A program made the translations under genes and the position numbers. This document shows, one piece after another, positions 41,887 to 58,736 of a DNA stretch of 64,000 nucleotides (positions within the stretch are counted from its first letter, which is position 1; each line of letters begins with the position of its first letter). The notes beneath the pieces were generated by a model that saw only the letters and a list, made by a program, of their open reading frames with translations, ran no database searches and was not told the origin of the DNA. Source of the stretch: Candidatus Binatia bacterium (GTDB taxonomy: Bacteria > Desulfobacterota > Binatia > HRBIN30); assembly GCA_937925685.1 (NCBI GenBank), contig CALAMI010000017.1:1106-65105 (forward strand), read 5' to 3'.

Positions 41887-44800
41887 CTATCCGCCCACGC
41901 TCGATGCGGCATCGGTATAGTCTTTGCCCTCGTTGTTGCTAGCTTCTGCCGCAACTTCGCGTTCCAAGCGTTCTATGTCGCTTTGTGACAAGCGGAAGTA
42001 CTGCGCCTCGGGGTGGTGAAACACCAGTGCGGTTACCGAGCCCTCGGGATCCATCATGTATCCTTGGGTAAGGCGCACCCCGATGCGTTCCGTCACTTGA
42101 AGCAACCGAAACAAAATCTCTTGGTCCTCCAACCGCGGGCAAGCGGGGTAGCCAAAAGAGTAGCGCCGCCCCCGATACTTCGCTTGGAAGAGGTCTTTCT
42201 TCGTGGTTCCCGGCGGATCGGGGAATCCCCACATTTCGCGGATTTTTTTGTGCAACAGCTCGGCAAATGCCTCGGCCCCTTCCAGGGCGAGCACTTGCAA
42301 GATATGGCAACGCAGGTAATCGCCGCCAGCTTTCCATTCTTCGGCAATAGGCCGCACATCCGGTCCAATCGTGGTAGCGAACATGCACAGGTAGTCGGCA
42401 CGGTTGGACTCCAGGGACCAAATGTAGTCTGCCAGGCACAAATAGGGCGGGTCGGACTGTCTGCCGAACCGGAAAGTGGCGAGCACCTCCTTGCCGTCGC
42501 TGGTAAGGATATGCAGGCGGTTGCCTTCGCTCGCGGCACGAAAGAAGCGGTAAACGGCACGAGCACGGAGCTTGGGGTGGCGCACCATGAAGGATTGTAC
42601 TTCTGCGACACGCTCGGCGAGCTCGCGCGCCGTACGTTCGCCGCTGGCTAAAGCGCTTTCGAAGTCACCTTGGTATCCCAGGTGGCGGTTATAGAGCATC
42701 TTCGGATTGACGTATGCGAAAATCGTATCGAGGTCGTAATCATCCACCACGTGCAGCTTCAGATCTGGAGGGAGCGGCACCTCTTCGAGTGGGCGGACGT
42801 TCGAGCGGGTAGGTGTCGCTGCAGGGAGCGGCTCGTCGAGCCGGGTGCTGATCTGGCCAAGCAAGCGTGCCGTTTCCTCGCGCAAGCGTTGTTCCAGCAA
42901 GGCCCGCTGGCTTGGATCGACAACTCGTTTTGCAAGTTCGAGCCCGGTCATCGCGTCGCGGGCGTAGGCAACGAGGCCACCGTACGCAGGCGCGATTCGC
43001 GTGCGCGTGAACTGATTCGACAGCGCAGCGCCACCGACGAGAAGCGGGCAGGAAATACCCGCCTCTTTGAGTTCCTGTCCGGTGGTGACCATCATTTGTG
43101 CCGAACGGACGAGGAGGCCCGAAAGGCCGATGGCATCGGGGCGATGCTCACGATAGGCGCGCACGAGTTCCTGCGGGGGCACATTGATACCCAAGTTAAC
43201 GATGCGAAAGCCGTTGTTGCTGAGAATGATATCCACCAGGTTCTTGCCGATATCGTGGACGTCGCCTTTCACGGTGGCCAGCACAATCGTGCCACGCAAC
43301 GAATTTGCACTTTTCTCCATGTGCGGTTCGAGGTAGGCCACAGCCGCCTTCATCACTTCCGCAGACTGCAGCACCTCGGCCACGATGAGTTTGTTTTCGG
43401 CAAACAGCCGGCCGACTTCGTCCATCCCTGCCATCAAAGGACCATTGATGATTTCCAGCGGCGTGCGCGTGCGCAGTGCTGCATCGAGGTCAGCGAACAG
43501 TCCGTCGCGCGAGCCTTCGACGATGTAGCGTGCAAGCCGCTCGTCCAGTGGCAGATCCGGTGATGCTGCCCTTTTCTCCTGAGGAGCCTTGGCACGGAAG
43601 TACGCGGTAAACGCACCCACTGGATCCGCTCCCCGCCACCAAATCAAATCTTCGGCAAGGCGACGCTCTTCTTCAGGAATGGCAGGGTACCGCTCGAGTT
43701 TCTCGGTGTTGACGATGGCCAGGTCCAGCCCCGCCTGCACCGCATGGTACAAGAACACCGAGTTCAGCACTTCGCGCCCGGCAGGCGGAAGACCGAACGA
43801 CACGTTGGAAATGCCCAAGATGGTTTTGCACTGAGGCAAAGCTTGCTTGATCGCACCGATGCCTTCGATGGTTTCGGCTCCAGAACCGATGTAGTTCGGG
43901 TCGCCCGTGCCAACGGGGAATACCAGGGCATCGAAGAAAATGTCTTCTGGCAAAACGCCATATTTGCGGGTGAGAATATCGTAAGCCCGCAAGGCGATTG
44001 CCAACTTGCGTTCCTTGGTAATGGCTTGTGCTTGCACTTTGTCGTCGTCGATACAGCCAACGACTAGTGCAGCCCCGTAAGCGCGGGCCAAAGGCACCAC
44101 GCGTGCGATTCGCGCTTCTCCATCTTCGAGGTTCACGGAATTGATGATGGACTTTCCGGGTGTGCGCTTCAGGGCTTCTTCCACCACCACGGGGTCGGTG
44201 GAGTCGATCATGATCGGGACTTTGATCGCCTTCACCAGGATTTCGAGAAAACGGCGTACGTCTTCGACCTCGTCGCGATCTGGGTCTTGCAAACACACGT
44301 CCACCACGTGGGCGCCCTTGCGTACCTGATTGCGTGCCACTTCAGCAGCCATTTCCCATGCGCCCTCAGCGACAAGCCTTTTGAATTGGCGGCTGCCCAG
44401 TACATTCGTGCGCTCGCCCACGAGGATCGGACGGGTATCTTCGTCGATCACCAGCGCTTCGATGCCCGAGACCACGCACCGGCGGGGCACCTCGGCACGG
44501 CGCGGTGGATATCGGCGAGCGACCTGGGCGAGCAAGCGAATGTGTTCCGCCGTGGTGCCACAGCAGCCACCGATCACGTTTACCCAGCCGGCGGCGCAAA
44601 ACCGTTCCACTTTGCGAGCCAGGTCAGCGGGGGACTCGTGGTAATGGCCATGTTCGTCGGGCAGGCCGGCGTTGGGATAGACCGAAATCGGGAAGCGGGA
44701 GATCTCCGCCAAGGCCCGCAAGTGATCCGTCATGAAATCCGGGCCGGTCGCGCAGTTCATACCGATCGCGAAGAGATCGCGATGAGCTACAGACGCGTAG

Positions 44801-45444
44801 AGTGCTTCGATCGACTGCCCAGCCAGCATCGTGCCCATGGTTTCAATGGAAACCGACAGCACCACCGGCACACGGCGGCCAAGCTGCGCGCAAGCGTCGT
44901 CGATGCCTAACAAGGCCGCTTTCACATTGAGCGTATCTTGCTGGGTTTCGAGATACAGGAGGTCGACGCCACCCTCGATCAGGGCACGAGCTTGCTCGGC
45001 GTAGAGTACACGGACCTGGTCGAAGGTAACGCCGCCGGTCAACGAGATCGTCTTCGTGCCCGGGCCCATCGCCCCGGCCACGAACCGCGGCCATTCGGCG
45101 GTACTGAACGCATCGGCAAGCTGGCGGGCGAGCTGCGCTGCTTGGAAGTTCACGTCGTACACGAAATCTTCCAGGCCGTACTCGCCCAGGACCAGGCGGG
45201 TGCCCCCGAAGGTGTTGGTTTCAATAATGTCCGCACCGGCCTCGAGATAAGCCCGATGGATCGATTGGATCACATCGGGGCGGGTGCGCACGAGGTTCTC
45301 GTTGCAGCCTTCGAACGCTGGGCCACCGAAGTCCTCCGCAGTCAAAGCGAACCCCTGGATCGCGGTGCCCATGGCCCCGTCGAGCACGAGAATTCGCTTC
45401 TCTAAACTAGCGCGCAACGCGCCTAGCCGTTCCTCTGGCTGCAT
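41887..45444 (-). CDS. metH: Cobalamin-dependent methionine synthase
   Basis: Full module order: Hcy S-methyltransferase (RILVLDGAMGT, GGCCGTT), pterin-binding, B12-binding cap with DxHxxG (GDVHDIGKN), and AdoMet reactivation domain. ATG at 45444 (MQPEERLG) aligns with E. coli MetH; 45456 is a GTG extension. Confidence 0.9.
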   Translation of the reverse strand: MQPEERLGALRASLEKRILVLDGAMGTAIQGFALTAEDFGGPAFEGCNENLVRTRPDVIQSIHRAYLEAGADIIETNTFGGTRLVLGEYGLEDFVYDVNFQAAQLARQLADAFSTAEWPRFVAGAMGPGTKTISLTGGVTFDQVRVLYAEQARALIEGGVDLLYLETQQDTLNVKAALLGIDDACAQLGRRVPVVLSVSIETMGTMLAGQSIEALYASVAHRDLFAIGMNCATGPDFMTDHLRALAEISRFPISVYPNAGLPDEHGHYHESPADLARKVERFCAAGWVNVIGGCCGTTAEHIRLLAQVARRYPPRRAEVPRRCVVSGIEALVIDEDTRPILVGERTNVLGSRQFKRLVAEGAWEMAAEVARNQVRKGAHVVDVCLQDPDRDEVEDVRRFLEILVKAIKVPIMIDSTDPVVVEEALKRTPGKSIINSVNLEDGEARIARVVPLARAYGAALVVGCIDDDKVQAQAITKERKLAIALRAYDILTRKYGVLPEDIFFDALVFPVGTGDPNYIGSGAETIEGIGAIKQALPQCKTILGISNVSFGLPPAGREVLNSVFLYHAVQAGLDLAIVNTEKLERYPAIPEEERRLAEDLIWWRGADPVGAFTAYFRAKAPQEKRAASPDLPLDERLARYIVEGSRDGLFADLDAALRTRTPLEIINGPLMAGMDEVGRLFAENKLIVAEVLQSAEVMKAAVAYLEPHMEKSANSLRGTIVLATVKGDVHDIGKNLVDIILSNNGFRIVNLGINVPPQELVRAYREHRPDAIGLSGLLVRSAQMMVTTGQELKEAGISCPLLVGGAALSNQFTRTRIAPAYGGLVAYARDAMTGLELAKRVVDPSQRALLEQRLREETARLLGQISTRLDEPLPAATPTRSNVRPLEEVPLPPDLKLHVVDDYDLDTIFAYVNPKMLYNRHLGYQGDFESALASGERTARELAERVAEVQSFMVRHPKLRARAVYRFFRAASEGNRLHILTSDGKEVLATFRFGRQSDPPYLCLADYIWSLESNRADYLCMFATTIGPDVRPIAEEWKAGGDYLRCHILQVLALEGAEAFAELLHKKIREMWGFPDPPGTTKKDLFQAKYRGRRYSFGYPACPRLEDQEILFRLLQVTERIGVRLTQGYMMDPEGSVTALVFHHPEAQYFRLSQSDIERLEREVAAEASNNEGKDYTDAASSVGG

Positions 45445-45730
45445 GACCCACTCCACTTAGCCCAATCCCCCCAAGCCGCAACTGTGCTCCGCGCGCTCGG
45501 TGGACTCCGGCAAATAGCCAGATGTGCGCGGACAAGCCGGCGCTACGGGGACGCACCGCTTTCCGGCTCCAACGCCTGCATCGGGCCCCGATGTTTCGCA
45601 GCTCGCTAACCTTGCGGTGATCGACCGGCTCGGTGGACCCAGGGGTTTGATTCTCGCCCCAAAACATCGCTACCCGTCCACGCCAGCAAAGCATCCGGCT
45701 ACCTTCCCTATTCCTGCTCGCGCGCGAGCC

Positions 45731-48700
45731 TCAGCTTGTACGCCAACGGATCCAAGGAAATCGCCTGGCGGCTGATCGCACTTTGCAATGCAACGACTCG
45801 GAACTCACTGGGGCGCCCAGCATCACCCAGGAGAACGATCCCGCAACGCTGAGGATCTCGAGTGCAGCACTCCCATAGCTCTGCTGGCACCAGATGTCCT
45901 CTTGCCCCCAGCGCTTCGCTGCGACCCAGCAATAGTATTCGGGCTGTCCCGCGGCGCTGGAACGGCACCAATGGAAGGGCCTGTCCGCACGCACAATGGT
46001 GCTTCCGTCGGGGTGGACAAAGGCATCTCGACCCGAATCCCACCGACAACCCAACGCCGCCGCGAAAGCCCAAAACAAGCGCGCAGCCCTAGCGACTCTG
46101 CCCCGACCGCGGCTCACTGCCGCAGTACGTCGAGCGTACACGGCCACTTCGCTTTCCATCCACTCGACATCGTTCTCATCTCCTGCCTCATGGCGCCCCC
46201 TGCGGGAAAAGCGGCGATTCCGCAAGCACTGGATCGTTCCTTTCGAGTTCGTTCTCGGACGAAGAGAGGGCACGCAAGTCCTCCAACTTGAAGTGGCTAC
46301 GGCAATCGTCCGCAATGAATTCCCGTGAACGTTCGAAACACGTGGCGATCGCTTCCTTCACGCCCTCGTCTTGAAAAGGCTTGGCTAGCTCTGCCACGAT
46401 TGCCTTGGCGACCCTAGTAAGCTTCCCCCGGGCGGACAAACAGGCTGCGCCCGTGCCAAAGCCCATCGCGCTTCGCTGGCGGTCCCGCTGGCTGGCCATC
46501 GATGCACGGCACCACGGACAATTCGTCCTCCCCATGCAAGCAATGCACGACCGTTTCTGCCATCCGTGCACCGCCTACCCGGCAACGTTGCTGCAAACCA
46601 TCCTCCGAGACGACGATCCTCCGAAGCATCCTACCTGACTCCTGCAACCAACTCGGTGATTCGCTGTCAAAGTTCGATCTGGAGCACGAACGAGACTTGG
46701 GCAGCGCCGCAGGTCGTTCCTCTAACACGGAGTTTAAATCACGGAGCACGGCAAAAGGCTCGGCCGAGTAAACCGTCGCCCCAACCACGGTCAAATTCGC
46801 GGTGCTTTCCTTCACGCTGGTGAACAGTTCTTGATGGCGCACCAAGGTCTGCATCGTCACCCGGTATCGCAAGCGCTCCACTGGAACCCAAGTGTTTTCC
46901 ACGGAAAGCCAGTGTCCCACACTTTCCCAAACCTCGCGAGGAAACCGACCGAGCGCTTTTCGCACTCCTTCAAGTTCGCGCGACTCCAAGCGTACCCCGC
47001 TAGGGAGGCCTGACAACCACTCTAGAACCGCATGCGGACTAGGCTCCTCTGCAACTCCTATGGCCCGCCAAAACTTCAGTTCCGCCACCACCGGATGGAT
47101 GAGTGGCGGATCTGGATAAGCCTCCGACGGACGCAGGTACACTTCGCCCCGGCGGGCCCACCCATAGGCTTCGGTTAAAATCAACGGGGTCTCATCGAAC
47201 GCTTGCCGTACCACCTCCAATTGTTGTGGATCTTCCGGGGTCAGAGCCTGGTCAAGGGCGCGGTAATGCTTTTCGATCTCGCTCACCACTTTTTTCGGCT
47301 CGGAAACCGTTGCCAGAGCCCGTAGCCGCTCGAGCAGTTTTTCTACCCCAGCCGGGCGGGTGCACACTCCAAGAGCCTCGAGCAACGGTTTCGTGATGTC
47401 CTGATCCCAATCCACGTGAACGAATGGCTCCATGCCAAGAAGGAGTTCGATGTCACGGTTGCGAAGATACAGATCGCTCGGCACCCGAATGATTCCGTTG
47501 GTGCCGGGAAAGCAGGGCAGCAACCGCAAACGAAAAACCCAGGCAGCTACAATCGGACCGGCTGACACGTCGTGCGCACGTACTCGACCAAGCTGGTAAA
47601 CCTTCGCATGCAAGCGTTCTCTCCAGCACGGTGGCGGCGCAGCGATCATCGCCCGAACCACAGAGGCCATGACCTCAGGAACTGCAGGGGCAAGCTCGGA
47701 CCATCGCTGTGGTAATGGCGGCGCGAAATCGTAATCCACCCAAAGGGAGCGCTCGCTCTGCTGGGGCGCAAAGAACCCATCCGCCACGCTACGTCTCTCC
47801 AGCGTAAAAGAGAGCTGGCGTTTGCAGTGAATGCCCTGCTGCAATTCGCTGAACGGTGGACAGAGGGCCAATCTCCTATTGGGCGATCGCAGCCAACTCT
47901 GCCATTTGTCCAAAGCACACGCCTCCGAGTCGCGAAAATACCCGTCGTGCAGCACGCGGGTTGCTTGCCAGTCTTCCGGTAGCAACTCTTCCACCCACGT
48001 TGCCGCCGATCCACTCTTCCGTCCACGGCCGCGACTCACCATCGCGAGTGGCGGCTCGCAGAGACTTAGGAGCTTCCACATCCAGAGCGGCCATGAGATG
48101 GGCGATCAGCACATGCTGCGCGAAAGGCACATGACCGCGGGAAAAGAGTCGCTCGCATGCCCGGTGTGCGATGGTTGCTGTGTTGGTCGTCGTGCTCAAC
48201 CCCAAATCCCTCAGCAAGCGACTAGCCGCGTTGACTTCCTCTCGTTCCCGCTCGCCCTGACAGCGTGCCTCCAGGTACTCGATCCATTGAGCATCCACGA
48301 GGTCGATCAACCTAGAAAGAAATACCCAAGCTCCCTTGCCAATGTGCGCCGCGCGCTCGAGTAGGCGAACGACATCCGCCGCGCGTCGTAAAACGGAGCT
48401 GTCTGCAACAGGGACAAGCTGAAGACCTTGCCCTGGTGTTCCCGAGATAGCCGTTTCGGCAAATGCACGTGCACCCAATGCCACCAGCGAAGCAAGCGCT
48501 CCTGGTGCTGCGACCGCGGGATCTGCTCTGCCATCTCCAGTTGTTCGATCGGCTCGTCGTCATTGCCCGCCTCCATCGCATTCCAAGACAGCAGGGCTCT
48601 TCGCTGCGTAGCCGATACCTCGGCAGCAAGGACGTGCCGAGGCGGATTCCGGCTTTGGAAAACAGTGAGGATTTCTGCTGGCGACCACACCTCGTCAACG

Positions 48701-49879
48701 ACATTGGGAGGGGCTCGGCAATCTTGCCGTTTCACCAGCTCGCCCGTGCTGGTGAGCAACAGTGGCGCGTTGCCGATCACCGCGCCCATGGCCGTGCAAA
48801 TAGCTTGTACGACGTCTGACTCTAACGAGTCTCGCGCTTCGACTTTCTGCGGCAACAACTCGTAAGCCCGCGCTCGCTCGTTCAGCGACAGGGAGCGATT
48901 CCCCAGCCACTGTAAAACCGCTTGCCCGGCCACTGGGCCCACCCGCTCCGAAAGCCATCGATTGGTTGGCGACAACGACAGCGACTTGATCTCGGACCTG
49001 GCCGGGTCCTGGATGAAGGGCGCGTTGCAGGGAAATGGCAGGTCTAACTTCACGCCGCCCGGCAGCACCACGAACGCTTGCTGCGGGTCCGGTAACCCTA
49101 GAACGACTTGCACGGTGCAGGCTGGAACATCGAACTGTTCAGCAAACCGCTCCGCACGAATTTCTTCCTGAGCATCTAGGGGAAAGGCGACGTTCGTCTC
49201 GGAGTGGATTCAAAGCACCTCCTGTGTCGTGCCAGCCCGAAGCCGAAGCCGCTGCGAATTGGCAATGGGCCCAGCCCCAAGGCGCTGCAGGCTCAGCTCG
49301 CGCCTATTGATCGAAAAACCTTTGATATGCTGAAAGAAAATGAGGGAAATCGGGTTCTCCACCCACCCTCTTAAATTCTTTTCCAGTTCCGCCTTTGCCT
49401 GTCCTTCAGTCAGGTGCACGCAGATGCGCCTGCCATCGCTCTCGGAGGCAGCGTCGAGCCACTCAGGTTGAGTAAAGCGCCTCTCCGAAAAGCGAACGGC
49501 CAGGGTGGGCGTGAGCAACACAACTTCCTCCCCCAGGCTAAAGGTGGATTTAAAACCCACTCCTCGGAAGCCGATGGTAAACAGCTCGCTCTTGTTGGAA
49601 AGCCCGAAGTGGCAGAGCGAACGAAATTCTTCCTCGCTGAATTCCCGGCCGTCATGTTCGAACACAAATTGATCCTCGTGCAGTTAGACCCGAACATTCT
49701 CCGCCCCCACCATCGTCAGCATTCTTGAGAAGTTCCGACAACACGTGACGCGGGCTCTGAATTTGCCGGAAGAGCTGCCACCATGGTCGAGAAATCTGTG
49801 GCTTTGCCTCGAGATCGTCCCAAAGACCTTTGGCCTCCGCGACAATGGCGGCAAAAAATGCCGGCGGTTTCCGCCTCAT
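45731..49879 (-). pseudogene. Sacsin-like GHKL/HATPase_c_3 ATPase giant protein (~1380-aa equivalent), fragmented
   Basis: Fragment 49652-49879 carries RHVLSELLKNADD (Bergerat motif I of sacsin/Hsp90-like ATPases). The continuation GAENVRV-TAA-LHEDQFVFEHDGREFSEEEF...ELFTIGFRGVGFKSTF lies in a different frame and contains an in-frame TAA. Downstream pieces 48307-49113, 47876-48484, 46414-48081, 46188-46571 and 45731-46315 overlap pairwise in different frames. Confidence 0.5.
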
Positions 49880-50334
49880 CGCCCCACCTCCTCCCCGTTC
49901 TCGAGCAACTCGACGACGTCGAGAGCTACGTTAATTTGCTCGAAAGCAGGGCAATCCCCCGGTCGAGGCCGAACGGAGTCGAGCTGGGGCTTGCTGCCGA
50001 CGAAACCGACCAGTGCGAGTACGAACTGCTCTGGATCGTTGAGACCGACCAGAACTTCATCTCTGTTCAGAACGATTTTGGCGGCCCGGTCAGTCACGAC
50101 AACCCCGTTGATGAAATCCACCCATCCAGAACTGGGATCTAGGCTTTCGATCTCGTAGCCGAGTTGCTCTGCGCTTCGCTCCACGGCCTGACGCCCTCGT
50201 TGTGGTTCGGTTCCGAGCACCCACTCCACCGCGCGCCGGTGCAGAGAGTGGTTTTCGCTAAGCCCTCGAACTCCAGTGCCGCTCGGATCGCCTTGCTCGC
50301 CTTCCGTGAAGGGTGCTTTGGAAGAGGCGCACAA
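49876..50334 (-). CDS. Hypothetical protein (152 aa) between helicase and GHKL genes
   Basis: Open frame whose stop overlaps the start codon of the GHKL fragment. No motif recognised. It could instead be the 5' end of the GHKL gene. Confidence 0.3.
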   Translation of the reverse strand: MCASSKAPFTEGEQGDPSGTGVRGLSENHSLHRRAVEWVLGTEPQRGRQAVERSAEQLGYEIESLDPSSGWVDFINGVVVTDRAAKIVLNRDEVLVGLNDPEQFVLALVGFVGSKPQLDSVRPRPGDCPAFEQINVALDVVELLENGEEVGR

Positions 50335-50418
50335 ACGCGCGGTGATCCGTGCTAGAAGCCCTTGTGGAACAACAAGAAAACCGATTTCGACCAGCGGCCG
50401 AGCTGCGGAAATATGCGC

Positions 50419-53400
50419 TTATTTGTCCAGCTCCTCCAGCCTTACCTCGAGCCGCTTCTTGAGTTCCTCGGCCTTTCGCTCCGCCTGGAGCGCGTTCAAC
50501 GAAGCGCCAGATTTTCCCGCGGATTCAACGGCGCGGAGTTGTCGTGTTCGTTGCTCCCAATAAGCAATGTTGTGGCGCATGCGGCTTTCCACCTCCCTGC
50601 GCACTTTGTCGGTGTGCTTCCGTCGTACAGCGACAACCTCTTCGCGGTGGCGGCTTGCGATGTGGGTGGCAGCGTAACGCAAGGCCAACCGCTCCAGCTC
50701 ACCCGGTAACCAATGGCTCTCGCTCGAGGCTCCCCTCGAATACGCTTCTGCAGGGGTTCGCGAGAGCAGCCGAGCACATTCCGGCGCAGCAAGCACTTGT
50801 GCAGCGGAGGCTTCATCCGGCCGCAGCGGTCAGTAATTTAGGTGTGGAGCGCGCCCGCCATTACGCGCAACCCCCGAAGAGTCGACTTCCACAAAGATAA
50901 ATCGCTGCGACACGACCCGCGCTGCGCCGCATGATGTCCGGGTTCCATCCACCACGCAGTGGCGGAAACCAAACGCCATCCGTGGTTCTACGCCTTGGTC
51001 CCGCTCGTCGACGACGATGCATCCTTGCTTCAACAGCTCCCCATCGCGCTCCAAGGTCAGCTCAACCACCCCGCGCAACAGCGGATGACCCGGATGGATC
51101 AGTTCCACTTCTTTCGCCTGCGAGCTTGGTGCTACGCTCTGACGAAACGTCACTCGGGGGTACGTTCGACGGACCGGCCCACCTCGGACGGCCGAGCCGC
51201 CACGATTACAGACGGGCGGAGGAACGGAAGTCAGAGCGTAAATACCTTCTTCGAGATGGGCAGACGTTCCACCAAGGCATTCGAATGCCTCGAGGAAAAA
51301 ACTCTGCGTTGCGTGTGGATACAACCGGATTGCGTTGGCTCGTTGGGCGTCGGCACTCGGCCGACGAACTGTCTCCATGCTGATGATTTCGCCAACGCTT
51401 TGTCATCCACCAGTTTACGGATTTCCGAGAGCTGCAGCGCATCGGACACCAGCTGATCGCATCGGGCACCGGCAATAGCTTCGTCAGCCTCCCGCAACGC
51501 CTGCAGGAGCACTCGAGCCAGGGGCTGACCGTGGAACTGCAACTTCCCCAAAACGTCGAACACCTTGCCTCCCAGGCTGCGTCGGATCTCGTCCAATTTC
51601 GTCAGCAAACGAGATAAACCCTACCCTCACGGGCTTGCTCCGCCACCAGGTTCCGCAAGGAGCATGGCTTCGTTTGGCCAATCCGGTGCACACGGTCAAA
51701 ACGCTGCTCGATGCGATTAGGATTGGACGGTAAGTCATGATTGACCACCAAATGCGCACATTGCAGGTTGATCCCCTCACCTGCGGCATCGGTCCCCCCC
51801 CAAAAATTTGCACCTCCGGACGACTGGCAAAACGCTCTTGCGTGGCGAGGCGTTTTTCCCGCGCGAGTCCCCCGTGAATAAAAGCCACTCGCTCTGGCCA
51901 ATGTTCCCCGATGCGCCGAACGAAGTACTGCAACGTATCGCGAAATTCCGTAAAGACAATGAGTTTCGGCGGCAGCGGACTGGCAAACTCCCGTGCAAGG
52001 TCATCGAAAAAGCCTACATCCTCACGGTTCCGCTCTATCTTCGCGCTAGGATCGAGGAGCACCCCCAACACTTGCCTCAGTTCCACCCACTTCCGATCCT
52101 CGCCCTTTCGCCGCAGTTCTTCCGCCAGGCCTTCCAGGCGACGCAAAGTGGCGATCTCTGCTTCCAGCTTTAGCCAGGCTGCTTGCGGCCGTGGCCTGAT
52201 CCAGCACCATGTTTTGAACTTCGTCCTCTGCGCCTTCTTCCAAGTCGTCAAGCTCCTCCCCATCGAGGCTCTGGACGAACCTCCCCTGGTCGACCCGACC
52301 CTTCCCAGCGAGCTGTTCGAGCTCGAAGGCTTGTGCCTCCAGACGCTGGCGGCGCCGTCGCAGCGAGCGGTAAATTGCTTCGGGCGAAGAGGCTAAGCGA
52401 CGCTGTAAGGTCATCAACGCAAAGCTCACCGTGCCCGCCCGTGGCTCATCTTCCAGCGCGTCGACTCGCTGAAACTCGCCCCGCACATGCTCCGTCACTT
52501 CTGCGTCAAGCTCTTCTGCGGCGGGGGAGAGAACATGGGTGCGCGTGTATGCGCGCCGCTGCCGGGAAAGAGGTGTCCCGTCGAATCTTATGAGCTCCTC
52601 TTGGACAACCCGCCGCATGACGTCCGACAGGTCCACGCGGCGATCACGCCCTGAGGGGTTTTGACCAAAACGCTCCTCATCGAGAGGTTGGAGGAAAAGT
52701 TGAAACTCGGACTGGCTTTCCTTTGTGAGGCGTCGCCGTGAGCCGCAGCAGGTTTTTGTGTACGGGCTGATAAAACGCGGCCCAGTTCGTAGCGCCGGGT
52801 GTACTTAATTTCGTTGCCGGCATAGGTTGCCACCATTTTGTGCGCCTCGTCGACGACCACCAAGTCCCAACGGTACTCTGGGTCTTCCAACAGGCTCCGC
52901 AGCCTGGGGGTCGCGAGCGCATTTATCCATCCGGGCAATCACCAAGGAATGCTCGCGAAACCAATTGCCGCTCGGGGCCGAGGCGAGCTTCTCCTTGGTG
53001 GCGATTTCGAACGCAAGCTCAAAACGGTCGTGCAATTCCGCTTGCCACTGTTCTACCAAGATACCGGGGCACACGATGAAACATCGCTCGAGTTCGCTCC
53101 GCAGAAGCATCTCTTTGATCAAAAGGCCTGCGGTCACGGTTTTACCTGCACCAGGGTCATCGGCCAGGAGAAAACGCAGAGGCTGCCGGGGGAGCATGTG
53201 CTCGTAGACCGCGATCATCTGATGGGGCAATGGTTCGACACGCGAGCTGTGTAACCCCAGAGTCGTATCGAACAGATGTGTCCCGTGGATACGCAACGCC
53301 TTGGCCACTAGGCGATACTTCTTTCCGGGGGCAGAGAATTCTTAGCCGGGGTCCCAGGCGATGATTTGCAACCGGGCTTCATCGGCACGATAGAGCCGCC

Positions 53401-53546
53401 ACTTCGGCGGTACGTCCCGAGGCCGCGCGGTAGTTCGTCAGCACCACGTCCGCAAGGGGTCGCTCGAGAGCAACGACCTCGACAGTGTCGCCCGGGACAA
53501 TCCCCTTCACCCACTGGCCTACTTGCAGCTCTTCCAACCGTGCCAT
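50419..53546 (-). pseudogene. SNF2-family (DExH) helicase, ~1000-aa equivalent, fragmented
   Basis: Motif I LLADDPGAGKT (52805-53308). Motif [13 protein letters not shown] (52588-52938). Helicase_C KLIVFTEF...FIHGG (51484-52263). Motif VI region [10 protein letters not shown]...[23 protein letters not shown] (51602-51901). C-terminal extension fragments 50419-51608. Each is a separate overlapping ORF, with ≥6 frame changes plus a stop near 53330-53380. Confidence 0.55.
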
Positions 53547-53987
53547 CGATGCTTTGCTCTGCCTCTTCTCCAGCAGGGCTGCCTGACATCCCCAGCGGCC
53601 GCGGCAGACAACCTTACCCGACGCACCTGCGCGGCTGAGCTTCCTTCGTGCCGACGCAACCCTGCCCCCTGTTGTTCTACACCGCGAAAGTTCCACAAGC
53701 TGCCAACGACCTCGCAGCCCAGTTCATGTTCAAACGGGATCCGAGTGGTGAGAGTGCCATACCCGGTTTTTCCCCGCTGCCTACCGAAGCAGAGGAAGGG
53801 CGCCGCCGCGGTCGCGAAATGCCTGCATGCGCGCAGAGCTGTGGAGTGCGCTCGCCAGACCACCACATCCTCCCCCGCTGGAAAGGGCTGAGGCCCGTCG
53901 AACACCGAGGCCACGTGGGTGCAACTTTCGCGGAAGCATGACTTCTGCGCTCCAAAGACGACGGCGGCTGTCGGCGAGGCACCCGGG

Positions 53988-55310
53988 TTAGCTCTTGTGT
54001 TTCTTCAAATACTCCAAGTCCCGCGCCTGTTCGGTCTTCAACGACACCAGCACAAAGCATCGATCCTTGGTACGCTTAAAGTAAAACCTGCCGTCATCGC
54101 TCCGACCCGTGGAGAATCGAATCTCGCTCCATTCCGGAGCGCTTTGCACCCGTTTGGCACGAAGTTGCTCGGGCGCCCGAGCCAGCAAACTCAGCTTTTT
54201 CAGGGCGTCGTCGTAACTCTGTAGCTCCACCGTAAGGACATCGACCGAATCGCGCACCAGGGTGAGGCTCGGCGCAAAGAGTTCCAAAAACCTGGGCAAC
54301 TCCGCACGCTGGGCACGACGAAGCTCGCACTCTTTGCGTCGGCTTTCCGTCTTCAACGTCTGGGTCTCTTCTCGGGCACGGCGGAGTTCTACCCCCAGGT
54401 TGTCGATTGCCTGACGAAGTCGCTGATTTTCCTCCTTGAGGCTCAAATTTTCTGCCTCGAAAGTTTCCACCCATTCTTTCACTTTTTCTTCAGCCTGCTG
54501 TTGCTCAGGCACGAGGCCAAAGTGTCGGCAAAAGAAATCGTGAATCTCGCGCTCGCCGACCTCGCCATCGAGGACCACGTACCACCGGTACTGGCGGCCA
54601 TCGATGGCGGGGCGCGAACTCAACGCGTATCGCAAGCACGGATATCCGCGCATCTCGAGCTGGGCCATCACCTCGTGCAGCGTGACTTCGTCGCAGTCGA
54701 GGGAAAGGTAACGCGTACCTGCCTGCGCGATCTCGAAACAATACGACAAGCGTGGCGTGCCTCCCTGCATGCCGGCCACCACGGATCTCGGCAAGTACAA
54801 TCCGACTTTCAAACCTAAGAGCGTCCCCTGCACGTCGCTCGCAAGCTCCGTGATCACCGCTGGCATAGGATTATGCCCGCCGTCCATGTACGGGGCCAGC
54901 GCCGCAGCCAAGTAGCGACTGACATGCCCGAGCTTGACACCATGCTCATTCTTCACCGCAATGGCGTTGACGTCATACGAATTCCACGGCTCGCGCCATA
55001 GCCATACCCGTTCGCGCAAGGCGACAGACCGTACCAATTCGGTGCGCGGCTCGTACTGGATGCCCACCACCGATACGGTGACCGGTTCATGGCCCGGGGG
55101 GGCAGAAAAATTCCAAACCCGCAAGCCTTGCCGGGAAAACAAGCGCACCATCGACGTGAGACTTCGATACAAGCGCGCAACCAACGTTTTTGCGTCTGCA
55201 CGCCCACCGAGAGGCGGTGCCGCCGCCACGCCTTGCCCGCTCTTCGTCTCGGGAGCGTTCTGCGCCGGCAGAGGCACTAGCGGCGAAGTCGACTGCACGT
55301 TGCCAGGCAT
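53988..55310 (-). CDS. Stand-alone HIRAN-domain protein with central unknown domain and C-terminal coiled coil
   Basis: HIRAN signature VSVVGIQYEPR...RERVWLWREPWNSYDVNAIAV..GVKLGHVSR..AAALAPYMDGG. Residues ~300-380 form a heptad-rich coiled coil (EENQRLRQAIDNLGVELRRAREE). Intact 440-aa ORF. Confidence 0.6.
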   Translation of the reverse strand: MPGNVQSTSPLVPLPAQNAPETKSGQGVAAAPPLGGRADAKTLVARLYRSLTSMVRLFSRQGLRVWNFSAPPGHEPVTVSVVGIQYEPRTELVRSVALRERVWLWREPWNSYDVNAIAVKNEHGVKLGHVSRYLAAALAPYMDGGHNPMPAVITELASDVQGTLLGLKVGLYLPRSVVAGMQGGTPRLSYCFEIAQAGTRYLSLDCDEVTLHEVMAQLEMRGYPCLRYALSSRPAIDGRQYRWYVVLDGEVGEREIHDFFCRHFGLVPEQQQAEEKVKEWVETFEAENLSLKEENQRLRQAIDNLGVELRRAREETQTLKTESRRKECELRRAQRAELPRFLELFAPSLTLVRDSVDVLTVELQSYDDALKKLSLLARAPEQLRAKRVQSAPEWSEIRFSTGRSDDGRFYFKRTKDRCFVLVSLKTEQARDLEYLKKHKS

Positions 55311-55721
55311 GGACCTGATCCCTCAAGCGCCGCTTATCCCCCCTTGGAACGAGAGGTCAAGGCCGCAGTTAGCATCAGGCGCTTCCTTGTTTCCCGCCAT
55401 TCTCACGCGCAAACCCCTGCGGCGGTGGAGGTCCTCGGTCGGCCGTGGAACGCGGCATCCCTATCACCGCAACGCAGCCCTCGCAGAGAGTTCTACCTGG
55501 AACACGCTGGGTACGGGCCCGTGGAACTGTGGTTTAGGCGGAAGCAAGGCTTCCGTGCTCCAGAGGAGGCGGGTGCAGCGTGCACAGGAGCAGGGGTTTG
55601 CAGGGAGGCGAGTTCCGCACTTTGGGGATGGCCCGGGTGGTGTAGGGGGCCGTGCTGCCAAGGCGTAACGCTCTGGCATAAGGCGCCAGCGGTCCTGTAT
55701 GGTGAAGTGCAGTCGAGGGTC

Positions 55722-58700
55722 ATGAGGGTCGCCATTGTCACGTTTTTGTTCTTGGCTTCCGGCTTCACTGGTCTGGTCTACGAGGTCATTTGGTCCCGTT
55801 ACCTCGCCTTGCTGTTGGGCAGCACGGCTCACGCCCAAGTAGGTGTCCTCGCTGTGTTCATGGCCGGGCTTGCCTTGGGTAGCGCCTGGTGGGGCGCTGC
55901 CGCCGATCGCACGCAACGCCCTTTACGCCTGTACGGCTTGTTGGAAATCGCCATTGGCGTGGGTACCGCTACTTTTGCCCTGGGGTTTACCCTGTGGAGC
56001 GAAGCCTACTGGTCGCTCCTGGCCTTAGTACCGCCACCCCACCCCGGAGCAAAGCTGGTTCAGGCCGGAGTGTGCATTGTATCCATGGCGCTTCCCACCG
56101 TTTGCATGGGGGGTACTTTGCCGGTACTTGCCCGCGCCCTCGGGCTCACCCGTGAAGGTTTTGGTCGCGGCGTAGCTTGGCTCTATGCCATCAATAGTCT
56201 CGGAGCGGCGGCAGGGGCTGCGGCCGCTGGCTTTTTGCTCTTGCCGCGCTGGGGGCTCGATACCCCGTTTCTCGCTGCGGCCGGGGTGAACCTGCTCGTT
56301 GGGCTGGTCGCCCTTCTGCTCGACCAACCCATGGCAATCGAAAGCCACCATGCCCTGGCCCCTGCACCTTCCACTGCGCCGGCACAAGACGCAGAGGCTA
56401 CTTGGATTTGGGGCTACCGCTGGCTCGTTCCATTGGCCGCCGCAGTGTCCGGCGCGGTGGCCATGGCCTACGAGGTCGTATGGATTCGCTTGTGCAGCTT
56501 AGTGCTGGGCTCCTCTACGTATGCGTTTTCCATCATGCTAACAGCCTTCATCCTCGGCATTGCCGCCGGTGGGCTGGTTTACACGCTTTGGGCACCAGCA
56601 TGCCGGCGGCCGCTGCAATTTTATCTGCTTGCTACCGTTGGAAGCGTGGCCGTGTTACTGGCCTGCATGCCCTTTTACGAGCGGCTGCCCTACCTGGCCA
56701 GCCGGCTGTTGTGGGTGGCTCGGCAGAGTGGCTGGACGTTTCTCGAGTACCAGCTAGCCAATCTCGCATTTTGGATTGCCGTAATGTTTCCCCTGACCTT
56801 CACCAGCGGCCTCACTTTCCCGGCGCTGGCTCACGCTGCCGCCCAGATCATGCCTGGACGGGGACGTCCCGTAGGCGCGGTGCTAGCTGCCAACACCCTC
56901 GGGACGATCATGGGCACAGTAGCTGCCGGTCTGTTCTTGCTGCCCTGGCTTGCCCTGCGCGGCACCTTTCTGCTGGCAGCGGCAACCACCGTAGCCGTGG
57001 CCAGCGCGCTGGTGCTCGCCGATCGCCGCCGCAGCGCACGACAGCGGCTTTCCCTGCTGTTGCCCCCGCTTGCGCTGTTCTTCGTCTACATCCTGCTCGC
57101 ACCGCGATGGGACTTGCGCCTCCTCGTCGCCGGAGAATTCCGCCGCCACGAGGGCATTGCACCGGAAGTATCCTTCGCCGATTACAAGGCGGACTTCGGC
57201 CAAGAGCTGCTTTACTACCGCGACGGAGCTACGGCCACCGTCAGCGTCGAGCGTACCGATGAGGATGTAATCCTACGGGTTAACGGCAAGTCGGACGCTT
57301 CGGCGCTGGGCGATCGGGAAACGCAACTGCTCATGGGACATTTGGGCCCCATGATTCTCGGCCGGACGCAGAGGGTACTCATTATTGGCTACGGCAGTGG
57401 CATGACTCTCGGAGCTGTGGCGCGCCATCCCGTCGGGGCCATTGACGTGGTGGAAATTGCCCCCGAAGTGATCGAGGCGGCAGAGTTTTTTCTTCCTTGG
57501 GTGAACGATACCAAGGGCGACGAGCGTGTGCGACTGTATGTCGAAGACGCGCGCACGTTTTTGTTTCGTACGCCGCACCGCTACGACCTGATCCTCAGCG
57601 AACCATCCAACCCGTGGGTAGCTGGGGTGAGCAACCTGTTCACCCGGGAATTCTTCACCCAAGCACGGCAGCGCCTGACGCCGCGGGGCATGCTGGTTCA
57701 GTGGTTTCACACTTACGAAACCAGCGACGAGGTCGTACGCCTCATCCTCCGCACGGCGGTCGAGCAGTTTCCCGATGTCCGCTTGTTTCAAAGCAACCAT
57801 GCCGATTTCTTCCTCGTTGCTTCGATGCAGCCGCGCGTGCTCGATACCGAGGCTGCGCGCGAAGCATTTACCTACGCCATCGACTTTGCCGGCCTCGGCC
57901 TTACGGAATGGCAGGCGCTGTTCGCGCTCGAGGTAGCGGGCCGCGACGATCTTCACTTCCTCGCTGGACCTGGGCCGATCCATACCGATCGCCGACCGCT
58001 GCTCGACTTCCTCGCAGCCGAGGCCTTTTACGCTGGCTCGCAAGCCTCGCTCATTCAGCAGGCTCGCTTCCGCGAAGACGACAGGCTCCTACCTGCGCAG
58101 CGCATTCCGGTTACCGCGCTGCGCCAGTGGGGGCAGTACCAGCAGCGCTACCACATGCTGTCCCAGCGCAGCAATTCGCACTTGCTCGTTTCTTGGCTCG
58201 CACAGGACCCCTCCGACCCGCTGCTGCACCAGCTGGCAGCGGAATTTCTACGGGCGCATCCGCGCGACCTTTCCCTGATGCAACAGTTCACCGCTGTAGT
58301 CGCTCAGGATGAGCAAAGCCGCGCATCGAGACTGCGCGGGCTTTTCGCCATGTTGCGCCTCGGACCCCAACCGGTGAACGACCGCTTCCTCGCTATGCTC
58401 CGCCCCCTGGTGCTCGATGCTCATAGCTCGCCCCGCGACATCGAATTGGAACTGCAGTTCGCCGAACTCCACTTGGCCGCGCAGGCTTTTTCCGAGACTC
58501 TAGAGATTTTGGATCTCAGCGAAGGGCTGCAGGTGATGGCCAGCTCGGAAGAGATCTCTCGCCGCGGGTGCATTCGCGCTCAGGCCCTTGAAGGGTTGCA
58601 GCGCTGGGCAGAAGCACTGGTGACCTTGGAACGTTGCACGCCTACGGGCGTAACGGAACGCCAGCAAGTGGAAGCACGGCGGCGCGTTCTTCAACAGCGG

Positions 58701-58736
58701 GCGGCAGCGACCGCAAACGAGCCACGGCACCCGTGA
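55722..58736 (+). CDS. Membrane-anchored spermidine-synthase-like (PABS fold) fusion protein
   Basis: ATG 55722. N-terminal ~480 aa with ≥12 TM helices. Central aminopropyltransferase-like Rossmann domain (VLIIGYGSGMTLG...DLILSEPSNPW). ~300-aa helical C-terminal region. Confidence 0.65.
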   Translation: MRVAIVTFLFLASGFTGLVYEVIWSRYLALLLGSTAHAQVGVLAVFMAGLALGSAWWGAAADRTQRPLRLYGLLEIAIGVGTATFALGFTLWSEAYWSLLALVPPPHPGAKLVQAGVCIVSMALPTVCMGGTLPVLARALGLTREGFGRGVAWLYAINSLGAAAGAAAAGFLLLPRWGLDTPFLAAAGVNLLVGLVALLLDQPMAIESHHALAPAPSTAPAQDAEATWIWGYRWLVPLAAAVSGAVAMAYEVVWIRLCSLVLGSSTYAFSIMLTAFILGIAAGGLVYTLWAPACRRPLQFYLLATVGSVAVLLACMPFYERLPYLASRLLWVARQSGWTFLEYQLANLAFWIAVMFPLTFTSGLTFPALAHAAAQIMPGRGRPVGAVLAANTLGTIMGTVAAGLFLLPWLALRGTFLLAAATTVAVASALVLADRRRSARQRLSLLLPPLALFFVYILLAPRWDLRLLVAGEFRRHEGIAPEVSFADYKADFGQELLYYRDGATATVSVERTDEDVILRVNGKSDASALGDRETQLLMGHLGPMILGRTQRVLIIGYGSGMTLGAVARHPVGAIDVVEIAPEVIEAAEFFLPWVNDTKGDERVRLYVEDARTFLFRTPHRYDLILSEPSNPWVAGVSNLFTREFFTQARQRLTPRGMLVQWFHTYETSDEVVRLILRTAVEQFPDVRLFQSNHADFFLVASMQPRVLDTEAAREAFTYAIDFAGLGLTEWQALFALEVAGRDDLHFLAGPGPIHTDRRPLLDFLAAEAFYAGSQASLIQQARFREDDRLLPAQRIPVTALRQWGQYQQRYHMLSQRSNSHLLVSWLAQDPSDPLLHQLAAEFLRAHPRDLSLMQQFTAVVAQDEQSRASRLRGLFAMLRLGPQPVNDRFLAMLRPLVLDAHSSPRDIELELQFAELHLAAQAFSETLEILDLSEGLQVMASSEEISRRGCIRAQALEGLQRWAEALVTLERCTPTGVTERQQVEARRRVLQQRAAATANEPRHP

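Follow-up and report, generated by a model that had tools for sequence, protein, structure and literature searches.

Three co-oriented genes on the minus strand, at 45.7-55.3 kb of a 64-kb stretch of DNA from Candidatus Binatia bacterium (contig CALAMI010000017.1; hereafter the window, meaning the whole 64,000 nucleotides analysed), raise the question whether a HIRAN protein, an SNF2 helicase and a sacsin-like GHKL ATPase constitute a single system, as a first-pass annotation made from the sequence alone had supposed, or represent the remains of a known system lying next to a gene of separate function. Over this module the minus strand presents one long intact open reading frame (ORF; 55310-53988), followed by a series of ORF fragments that overlap one another and occupy all three frames: that is, an intact HIRAN gene, an SNF2 helicase pseudogene and a sacsin-like GHKL ATPase pseudogene, an arrangement that the first-pass annotation had read correctly. 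The results described here make it probable that the region is a dead, reduced remnant of an Hma system (helicase plus GHKL ATPase) beside an independent, intact HIRAN gene, both having been inherited together.

53988..55310, minus strand: HIRAN gene, intact, 440 amino acids (ORF and Pfam HIRAN)
53547..53987, minus strand: spacer of 441 bp between the HIRAN gene and the helicase pseudogene
49876..53546, minus strand: SNF2 helicase pseudogene, assigned by profile to the HmaA family, intact size ~1220 amino acids (frame-aware alignment, PADLOC HmaA, Pfam)
49876..50418, minus strand: NOV_C tail of the helicase, the 'small ORF' of the first-pass annotation (Pfam NOV_C, HmaA profile, HR30 alignment)
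45708..49879, minus strand: sacsin-like GHKL ATPase pseudogene, ~1390 amino acids, with a C-terminal restriction-endonuclease-fold domain (frame-aware alignment)
near 53396, 52909, 52755, 52712, 52171, 51801, 51607 and 51386, minus strand: helicase frameshifts
53344, 50832 and 50421, minus strand: helicase stops
near 49711, 48459, 48016, 46419, 46190 and 45895, minus strand: GHKL frameshifts
49686 and 49212, minus strand: GHKL stops
41887..45456, minus strand: metH, intact, 1189 amino acids, downstream flank outside the module, used as synteny anchor (all five MetH domains in Pfam)

A scan of a genome collection returned one related locus, in Bacterium HR30, which is uninterrupted and has the gene order of the window: HIRAN (453-amino-acid ORF), helicase (1218 amino acids) and GHKL (~1400 amino acids). 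In HR30, metH (92% identical to the window protein) directly follows the GHKL gene, and a spermidine-synthase-like gene (82%; tblastn) lies upstream; because these two genes flank both loci, the HR30 and window loci are orthologous. Frameshift-aware dynamic programming, used to align the window DNA with the proteins of HR30, gives 71% identity without a lesion for HIRAN, 65% identity for the helicase and 60% identity for GHKL, and locates 8 frameshifts and 3 in-frame stops in the helicase pseudogene and 6 frameshifts and 2 stops in the GHKL pseudogene, for a total of 14 frameshifts and 5 stop codons. The same alignment sets the helicase at ~1220 rather than ~1000 amino acids and moves the 3' end of the module from 45731 to 45708. 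A second intact version of HIRAN, helicase and GHKL, again in the order of the window, is present at locus L016. A further relative, locus L008 (1587-11161; Candidatus Binatia, GCA_026415395.1), has the order helicase, GHKL, HIRAN, metH, with a metH product 89% identical to the window protein. Three genes present at the HR30 locus (L005 1903-7251), between HIRAN and the spermidine-synthase-like gene, are missing from the window. One encodes a sigma-54 activator, another a MOT1-type molybdate transporter, and the third a protein in which a 23S-rRNA-IVP domain is combined with a Top1-type zinc ribbon.

The helicase comprises an N-terminal domain, an SNF2 core, Helicase_C, a middle region and a C-terminal NOV_C/DUF3883 domain of PD-(D/E)xK fold, and successive fragments of the window pseudogene match, in turn, Pfam SNF2-rel_dom, ResIII, Helicase_C and NOV_C. 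The fragments are collinear on the PADLOC HmaA profile (PDLC00659, length 1176), covering positions 70-215, 276-464, 464-569, 572-632, 709-890, 904-1004 and 1008-1169, and the HR30 helicase matches the same model with 1220 bits over profile positions 1-1170 of 1176. Because the window fragments are collinear on HmaA and the HR30 orthologue is full-length at this score, we assign the helicase, on profile evidence, to the HmaA family of the Hma system. The earlier view that the module matches no named system thus gives way, since, in addition, the GHKL gene is a neighbour of hmaA in loci with hmaB and hmaC (see below). The small gene that had been read between the two large ones likewise dissolves. 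The ORF at 49876-50418 matches Pfam NOV_C (E = 3.1e-5) and HmaA profile positions 1008-1169, and aligns in frame with HR30 helicase residues 1042-1218; the stop at 50421 is a CAA-to-TAA change at a position where HR30 has Gln. We conclude that this ORF is the NOV_C domain at the C-terminal end of the helicase, severed by the stop at 50421, and not a separate gene.

The GHKL protein carries the motifs of a Bergerat-fold ATPase of sacsin type. Tests for ExxxNxxD, DxGxG-like and GxxGxG motifs were all positive; in the family alignment the motifs ELLQNADDAGA, FEHDG.DF and TIGFRGVGFKS are invariant, and the NCBIfam model of the sacsin N-terminal domain is matched at 75.8 bits (cut-off 50). The domain calls made at first pass (HIRAN, SNF2 with Helicase_C, sacsin-type GHKL, and DUF3883/NOV_C) are upheld. 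In the window, the frameshift near 49711 falls directly after the ATP-binding motif ELLKNADD, and a stop follows 9 codons further on. The family is large (at least 1146 homologues, in many bacterial phyla and in archaea; full length ~1360-1410 amino acids). In its C-terminal fold, Asp and Glu are invariant, and there is no invariant Lys. Among PADLOC models, the GHKL protein matches only those of Tiamat TmtA, and these partially; judged by its sequence, it is a distant relative of TmtA and not HmaC.

Hma is made up of HmaA together with HmaB, a methyltransferase of DUF1156 type, and HmaC, an ATPase of DUF499 type (PADLOC; Payne et al., 2021, PMC8565338), and has been renamed a type-1 DUF499-centred BREX-related system (PMC12839542). 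HmaA alone protects against phage T4, and in Halomonas HmaA the NOV_C nickase residues D1084, E1104, K1106 and E1121 are required (PMC11232893). We compared the window with metagenome loci L019-L097 and with L012-L014, all retrieved via the GHKL gene, so that the counts given here describe GHKL-linked loci and not hmaA genes at large. An HmaA-like helicase lies directly upstream of GHKL in 68 of the 77 loci that have upstream DNA (median gap 0) and further upstream in 5 (total 73/77), and the same pairing is found in L012, L013, L014, L016 and L017. The helicase stop and the GHKL start overlap by 4 nt, as ATGA, in the window, and the same 4-nt overlap occurs in L012, L013 and L014. Where at least 6 kb of DNA downstream of GHKL is available, DUF1156 is present there in 32/34 loci; where at least 7.9 kb is available, DUF499 is present in 15/26. 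Locus L014 (Thermoanaerobaculum) contains, in order, helicase, GHKL, HmaB (1079 bits) and HmaC (1097 bits), and L013 (Fontivita) has the same type of order with inserted genes between. The results show that, in most lineages, the cassette is hmaA, GHKL, hmaB (DUF1156 methyltransferase) and hmaC (HEPN-DUF499 ATPase), and that the GHKL gene usually comes next downstream of an HmaA-like helicase. Literature searches returned no description of the HIRAN, helicase and GHKL trio or of the GHKL partner, and the main texts of the Hma and BREX-related papers searched make no mention of the latter under any obvious keyword. A different setting is seen in a Chlorobi-type lineage (L015, 1-12092; L025; L026), where GHKL stands without an upstream helicase and instead after a HEPN_Swt1/DUF499-like gene; in L015 it adjoins type III CRISPR RAMP genes.

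The lineage of the window departs from this cassette. In tblastn searches with the L014 proteins, HmaB found no match in the 64-kb window or in the HR30 DNA that reaches 8 kb downstream of the GHKL gene (L018), and HmaC found none in the window or the HR30 locus. The NOV_C catalytic tetrad (encoded at ~49900-50150 of the window) is D/E/K/E in 69 of 81 GHKL-linked helicases, and degenerate tetrads are confined to HR30 and L016 (EKFE), the window (ENVE), L008 (HVLE), L012 (DAKE) and L017 (DKVT); thus the intact orthologues HR30 and L016 have also lost the nuclease catalytic residues. Loci L012, L017 and HR30 are visibly without hmaB and hmaC downstream. Because hmaB and hmaC are absent from both the window and HR30, and because the tetrad is degenerate, the ancestor of the window module had already been cut down to two genes, without a methylase and with a helicase dead as a nuclease. 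The pattern in L012, L017 and HR30 suggests that modification and cleavage were lost in a coupled way; that the nuclease residues disappear together with the methyltransferase and the DUF499 ATPase is what would be expected if an unguarded nuclease were toxic. In L017 (8057-15216), the nuclease-dead helicase and GHKL are followed by a protein of 1788 amino acids, in which RNase_T, DinG-like and RecQ-like domains are combined, and then by a UvrD-like helicase; these products could be alternative effectors.

The HIRAN gene behaves differently from the pair. Its 440-amino-acid product matches Pfam HIRAN with E = 4.7e-13 and the HLTF HIRAN domain in the PDB with E ~1e-10, and agrees with the HIRAN family (PF08797) in both sequence and beta-barrel fold. 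It consists of a disordered N-terminus, the HIRAN domain (~residues 74-175), an ACT-like alpha/beta domain (189-264), a coiled coil of ~75 residues (269-345) and a C-terminal domain (349-437) that has the RelE/ParE fold. A word-indexed search recovered no more than 7 clusters of the protein; a full hidden-Markov-model search of 1.84 billion representatives gave 98 matches at E <= 1e-30, ~50 of which cover most of the profile. Many further proteins (P0128-P0274) have in common with it only the coiled coil and the C-terminal domain, placed after unrelated N-termini, which are ankyrin repeats in P0273 and are without a Pfam match in others; such swapping of a module behind varied N-termini is typical of sensor-effector conflict proteins. 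The trio is intact in HR30 and L016, and a homologue of the HIRAN protein is present in none of the 79 other GHKL loci (73 of them with a helicase), other HIRAN families not having been screened. HIRAN adjoins the helicase-GHKL pair in four loci (window, HR30 and L016, in the same order, and L008, in the other order) and stands alone in 5 of the 9 places examined (L006/L007, L009, L011 and L098); in GCA_026004215.1, HIRAN and the pair lie on different contigs. Because of its absence from 79 GHKL loci, its lone homologues, its placement on separate contigs and its ~400-bp spacer as against a 4-nt helicase-GHKL overlap, the HIRAN gene most likely works independently of the helicase and GHKL genes. 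A split partnership of HLTF type between HIRAN and SNF2 proteins finds no support in this distribution, nor in the intactness of HIRAN beside decaying genes. One lone homologue, P0005 (L006/L007, 2879-11284; Binatia KatS3mg077), lies ~1.7 kb from a divergent imuA-imuB-dnaE2 mutasome cassette, with DUF488 and SnoaL genes between.

In an intact pair, the SNF2 motor would translocate on target DNA, the GHKL protein would dimerise upon ATP binding as a clamp or switch, like other GHKL ATPases, and either the GHKL C-terminal endonuclease-fold domain or, in canonical systems, the NOV_C nickase of the helicase would cut DNA. The HLTF HIRAN domain binds 3' DNA ends. The HIRAN protein would probably use its HIRAN domain to bind a free 3' DNA end, with the coiled coil relaying control to the toxin-fold domain, and would act as a single-protein stress or defence sensor and effector.

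The first-pass annotation had left a choice between pseudogenization and localised assembly errors. The identical HIRAN protein is encoded on contigs from four other samples. L002 shows zero indels relative to the window over 20 kb and therefore carries every window frameshift; L004 shows zero indels over its 4 kb, every frameshift there being common to both. L001 and L003 have additional 1-nt insertions at 49535 and 46204, and L003 has 5 extra nt at 48006 that restore the frame at the window lesion near 48016. All indel polymorphisms are confined to the two broken genes, and the density of polymorphic sites, pooled over L001-L003, is 3.3 per kb within the pseudogenes and 1.07 per kb in flanking DNA (Fisher p = 0.0008); the HIRAN gene has a single SNP (single-nucleotide polymorphism), which is synonymous. 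It could be held that the genes are intact and that errors of sequencing or assembly produced the frameshifts and stops, and indeed homopolymers of at least 5 bases are the site of ~6 of the 14 frameshifts (e.g., T5G8 at 51801). This is very improbable, given that the assemblies that share the lesions come from four other samples and differ from the window by SNPs; that five lesions are in-frame stop codons without indels, and so are not explicable by homopolymer miscalls; that metH (3.5 kb, 1189 amino acids unbroken) and other long genes are clean; and that L008 is broken independently, with at least 2 frameshifts in the helicase and at least 4 in GHKL, elsewhere than in the window, and an intact HIRAN gene. 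We conclude that, because four other assemblies share the lesions and differ by SNPs and indels, and because SNPs are 3-fold more frequent in the pseudogenes, the window lesions are real pseudogenization and no assembly artefact; that decay in L008 is parallel to and independent of decay in the window; and that, because lesions are polymorphic between the window, L001 and L003, decay is ongoing and varies between samples. Breaks that are real might still be programmed, with functional proteins made through recoding, ribosomal frameshifting or phase variation. The polymorphic lesion at 48006-48016, with its frame-restoring insertion in one strain, and the location of some lesions in homopolymers would fit such a scheme, and yet it is barely credible: the nineteen lesions are a mixture of +1, +2 and TAA or TGA stops with no conserved slippery-site pattern visible, the orthologues in HR30, L016, L012 and ~70 other loci are uninterrupted, and the rest of the window uses the standard code. 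Functional helicase or ATPase cannot be made from the window genes. Synonymous sites are saturated at 60-71% amino-acid identity, and we therefore used relative identities in place of dN/dS (the ratio of nonsynonymous to synonymous substitution rates) for the comparison of window and HR30. These are 74% (HIRAN C-terminus), 64% (helicase) and 60% (GHKL) for window vs. HR30, and 94%, 83% and 79%, respectively, for L016 vs. HR30. Relative to HIRAN, then, the divergence of the window pseudogenes does not exceed that of the intact genes of L016, and inactivation is therefore recent relative to the split from HR30. No intact allele closer than HR30 was found among the retrieved proteins, the best being 60% identical.

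With decay established, the remaining alternative is that the three genes form one lineage-specific functional system, in which the HIRAN/RelE-fold protein serves as sensor or effector after reduction of Hma, and which is now decaying in the window. The adjacency of the genes in four loci and in two gene orders speaks for this, as does the consideration that a nuclease-dead helicase would require another effector, and HIRAN binds 3' DNA ends of the kind that a nickase or translocase could expose. We nevertheless regard it as unlikely. HIRAN remains intact and conserved, although in two lineages the supposed partners are decaying independently; its homologues stand alone in five places, are unlinked in one genome and are missing from all 79 other GHKL loci; a 441-bp spacer separates it from the helicase, vs. 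the 4-nt helicase-GHKL overlap; and the four adjacent cases are close relatives (metH synteny; 94% identical HIRAN in L016) that may represent a single event. A bolder extension, that a stripped Hma derivative in the HR30-type lineage has been re-wired to the HIRAN/RelE-fold partner, combining 3'-end sensing with translation shutdown in a new three-gene abortive-infection system, and that, separately, the HIRAN/RelE-fold relatives are a new single-protein sensor-toxin family, is more doubtful still. Several points weigh against the reading of the region as a reduced Hma remnant beside an independent gene. HIRAN lies beside the pair in all four loci of the sub-lineage, in two orders, which could reflect a lineage-specific functional link. 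The association of tetrad loss with absence of hmaB and hmaC is seen in L012, L017 and HR30; the L016 contig ends ~250 bp past GHKL, and L008 was judged from the Pfam labels of called genes, none of them DUF1156 or DUF499. Nuclease activity of the GHKL C-terminal fold is uncertain, because the fold has no invariant Lys. The mechanisms proposed above for the pair and for the HIRAN protein, although probable, rest on homology and predicted folds. And the GHKL partner, absent from the main texts searched, may stand in supplementary data.

The surroundings of the module are unremarkable. Its intact neighbours are metH, a fused MFS/spermidine synthase, luciferase-like oxidoreductases and WS/DGAT. 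A composition profile shows the G+C of the module to be the same as that of its surroundings, with no anomaly; a tRNA scan and an Rfam scan (gathering thresholds) of the 64-kb window gave zero matches; and there is no integration-site signal at the window. A scan of 53400-55800 found neither a sigma-70-like promoter nor an intrinsic terminator pattern. Spacers of ~400 bp stand at the place equivalent to the HIRAN-helicase spacer in HR30 and L016, and an alignment of the three spacers shows poor conservation and no obvious element. The divergent neighbour of HIRAN, the fused MFS/spermidine synthase at 55344-58736 on the plus strand, is 1130 amino acids long as a mechanical ORF and 1004 amino acids long according to gene callers in other assemblies, and because of the latter its true start is probably ~400 bp away from the HIRAN start.

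The window locus itself is an ordinary decaying accessory module, of little consequence. Of some value to the biology of defence systems, alongside the joint loss of methyltransferase, DUF499 ATPase and nuclease residues described above, is the GHKL ATPase of ~1390 amino acids with an endonuclease-fold tail, found next to HmaA in 73/77 GHKL-retrieved loci: the placing of GHKL beside a NOV_C helicase resembles the fusion of GHKL to NOV_C in Tiamat and in plant NO VEIN. The fusion of HIRAN with a RelE/ParE fold, in a module that also occurs with other N-termini, is a candidate sensor-effector family open to direct test.

Comparison with known systems places each component. The HIRAN protein differs from RelE/ParE toxins, including the sensor-fused CRISPR ancillary protein Cami1, in that the putative toxin fold is joined to HIRAN, ACT-like and coiled-coil regions, and in that no antitoxin gene adjoins it, small upstream ORFs not having been examined as antitoxins. 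The locus differs from the HIRAN-SNF2 fusions of HLTF and Rad5 in that HIRAN and SNF2 are unfused, are separated by 441 bp and co-occur only in one lineage; moreover, the SNF2 protein falls in an HmaA/RapA-like defence clade, and HIRAN is joined to a RelE/ParE-fold domain and not to a RING or helicase domain. The SNF2 core resembles DrmD of DISARM (PADLOC 368 bits; NCBIfam 377 bits). We rejected DISARM, in view of the NCBIfam cut-off of 610, the 1220 bits to HmaA, and the lack of DrmA, DrmB, DrmC and DrmMI/MII among the scanned neighbours; the BREX helicase BrxH, Zorya ZorD and Dpd DpdE were rejected because their PADLOC and NCBIfam scores were far under those of HmaA and under curated cut-offs.

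Millman and colleagues are said to have described, in 2022, Tiamat TmtA as a single-gene defence protein with a sacsin-like GHKL ATPase and DUF3883. The GHKL protein resembles Tiamat in its N-terminal sacsin-type GHKL ATPase, long middle region and predicted C-terminal PD-(D/E)xK-fold domain, and PADLOC TmtA models match its first ~400 residues at ~180-190 bits. It differs in that the best model (PDLC03968, 183 bits) covers ~73-486 of 1486 positions plus a weak middle stretch and not the full length, and in that the gene is not, by its placement, a single-gene system: an HmaA-like helicase lies upstream in 73/77 loci, and in those loci that were inspected the stop codon of the one gene overlaps the start codon of the other. 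The window differs from Hma in having neither HmaB nor HmaC, a degenerate tetrad and two pseudogenes, and Hma as described in the main texts searched includes no GHKL gene among its core components. The likeness to Hma is nonetheless the closest: the helicase is HmaA-like throughout, with SNF2 core, Helicase_C and NOV_C/DUF3883 fold, and, in other phyla, the GHKL gene lies inside bona fide hmaA ... hmaB-hmaC loci.

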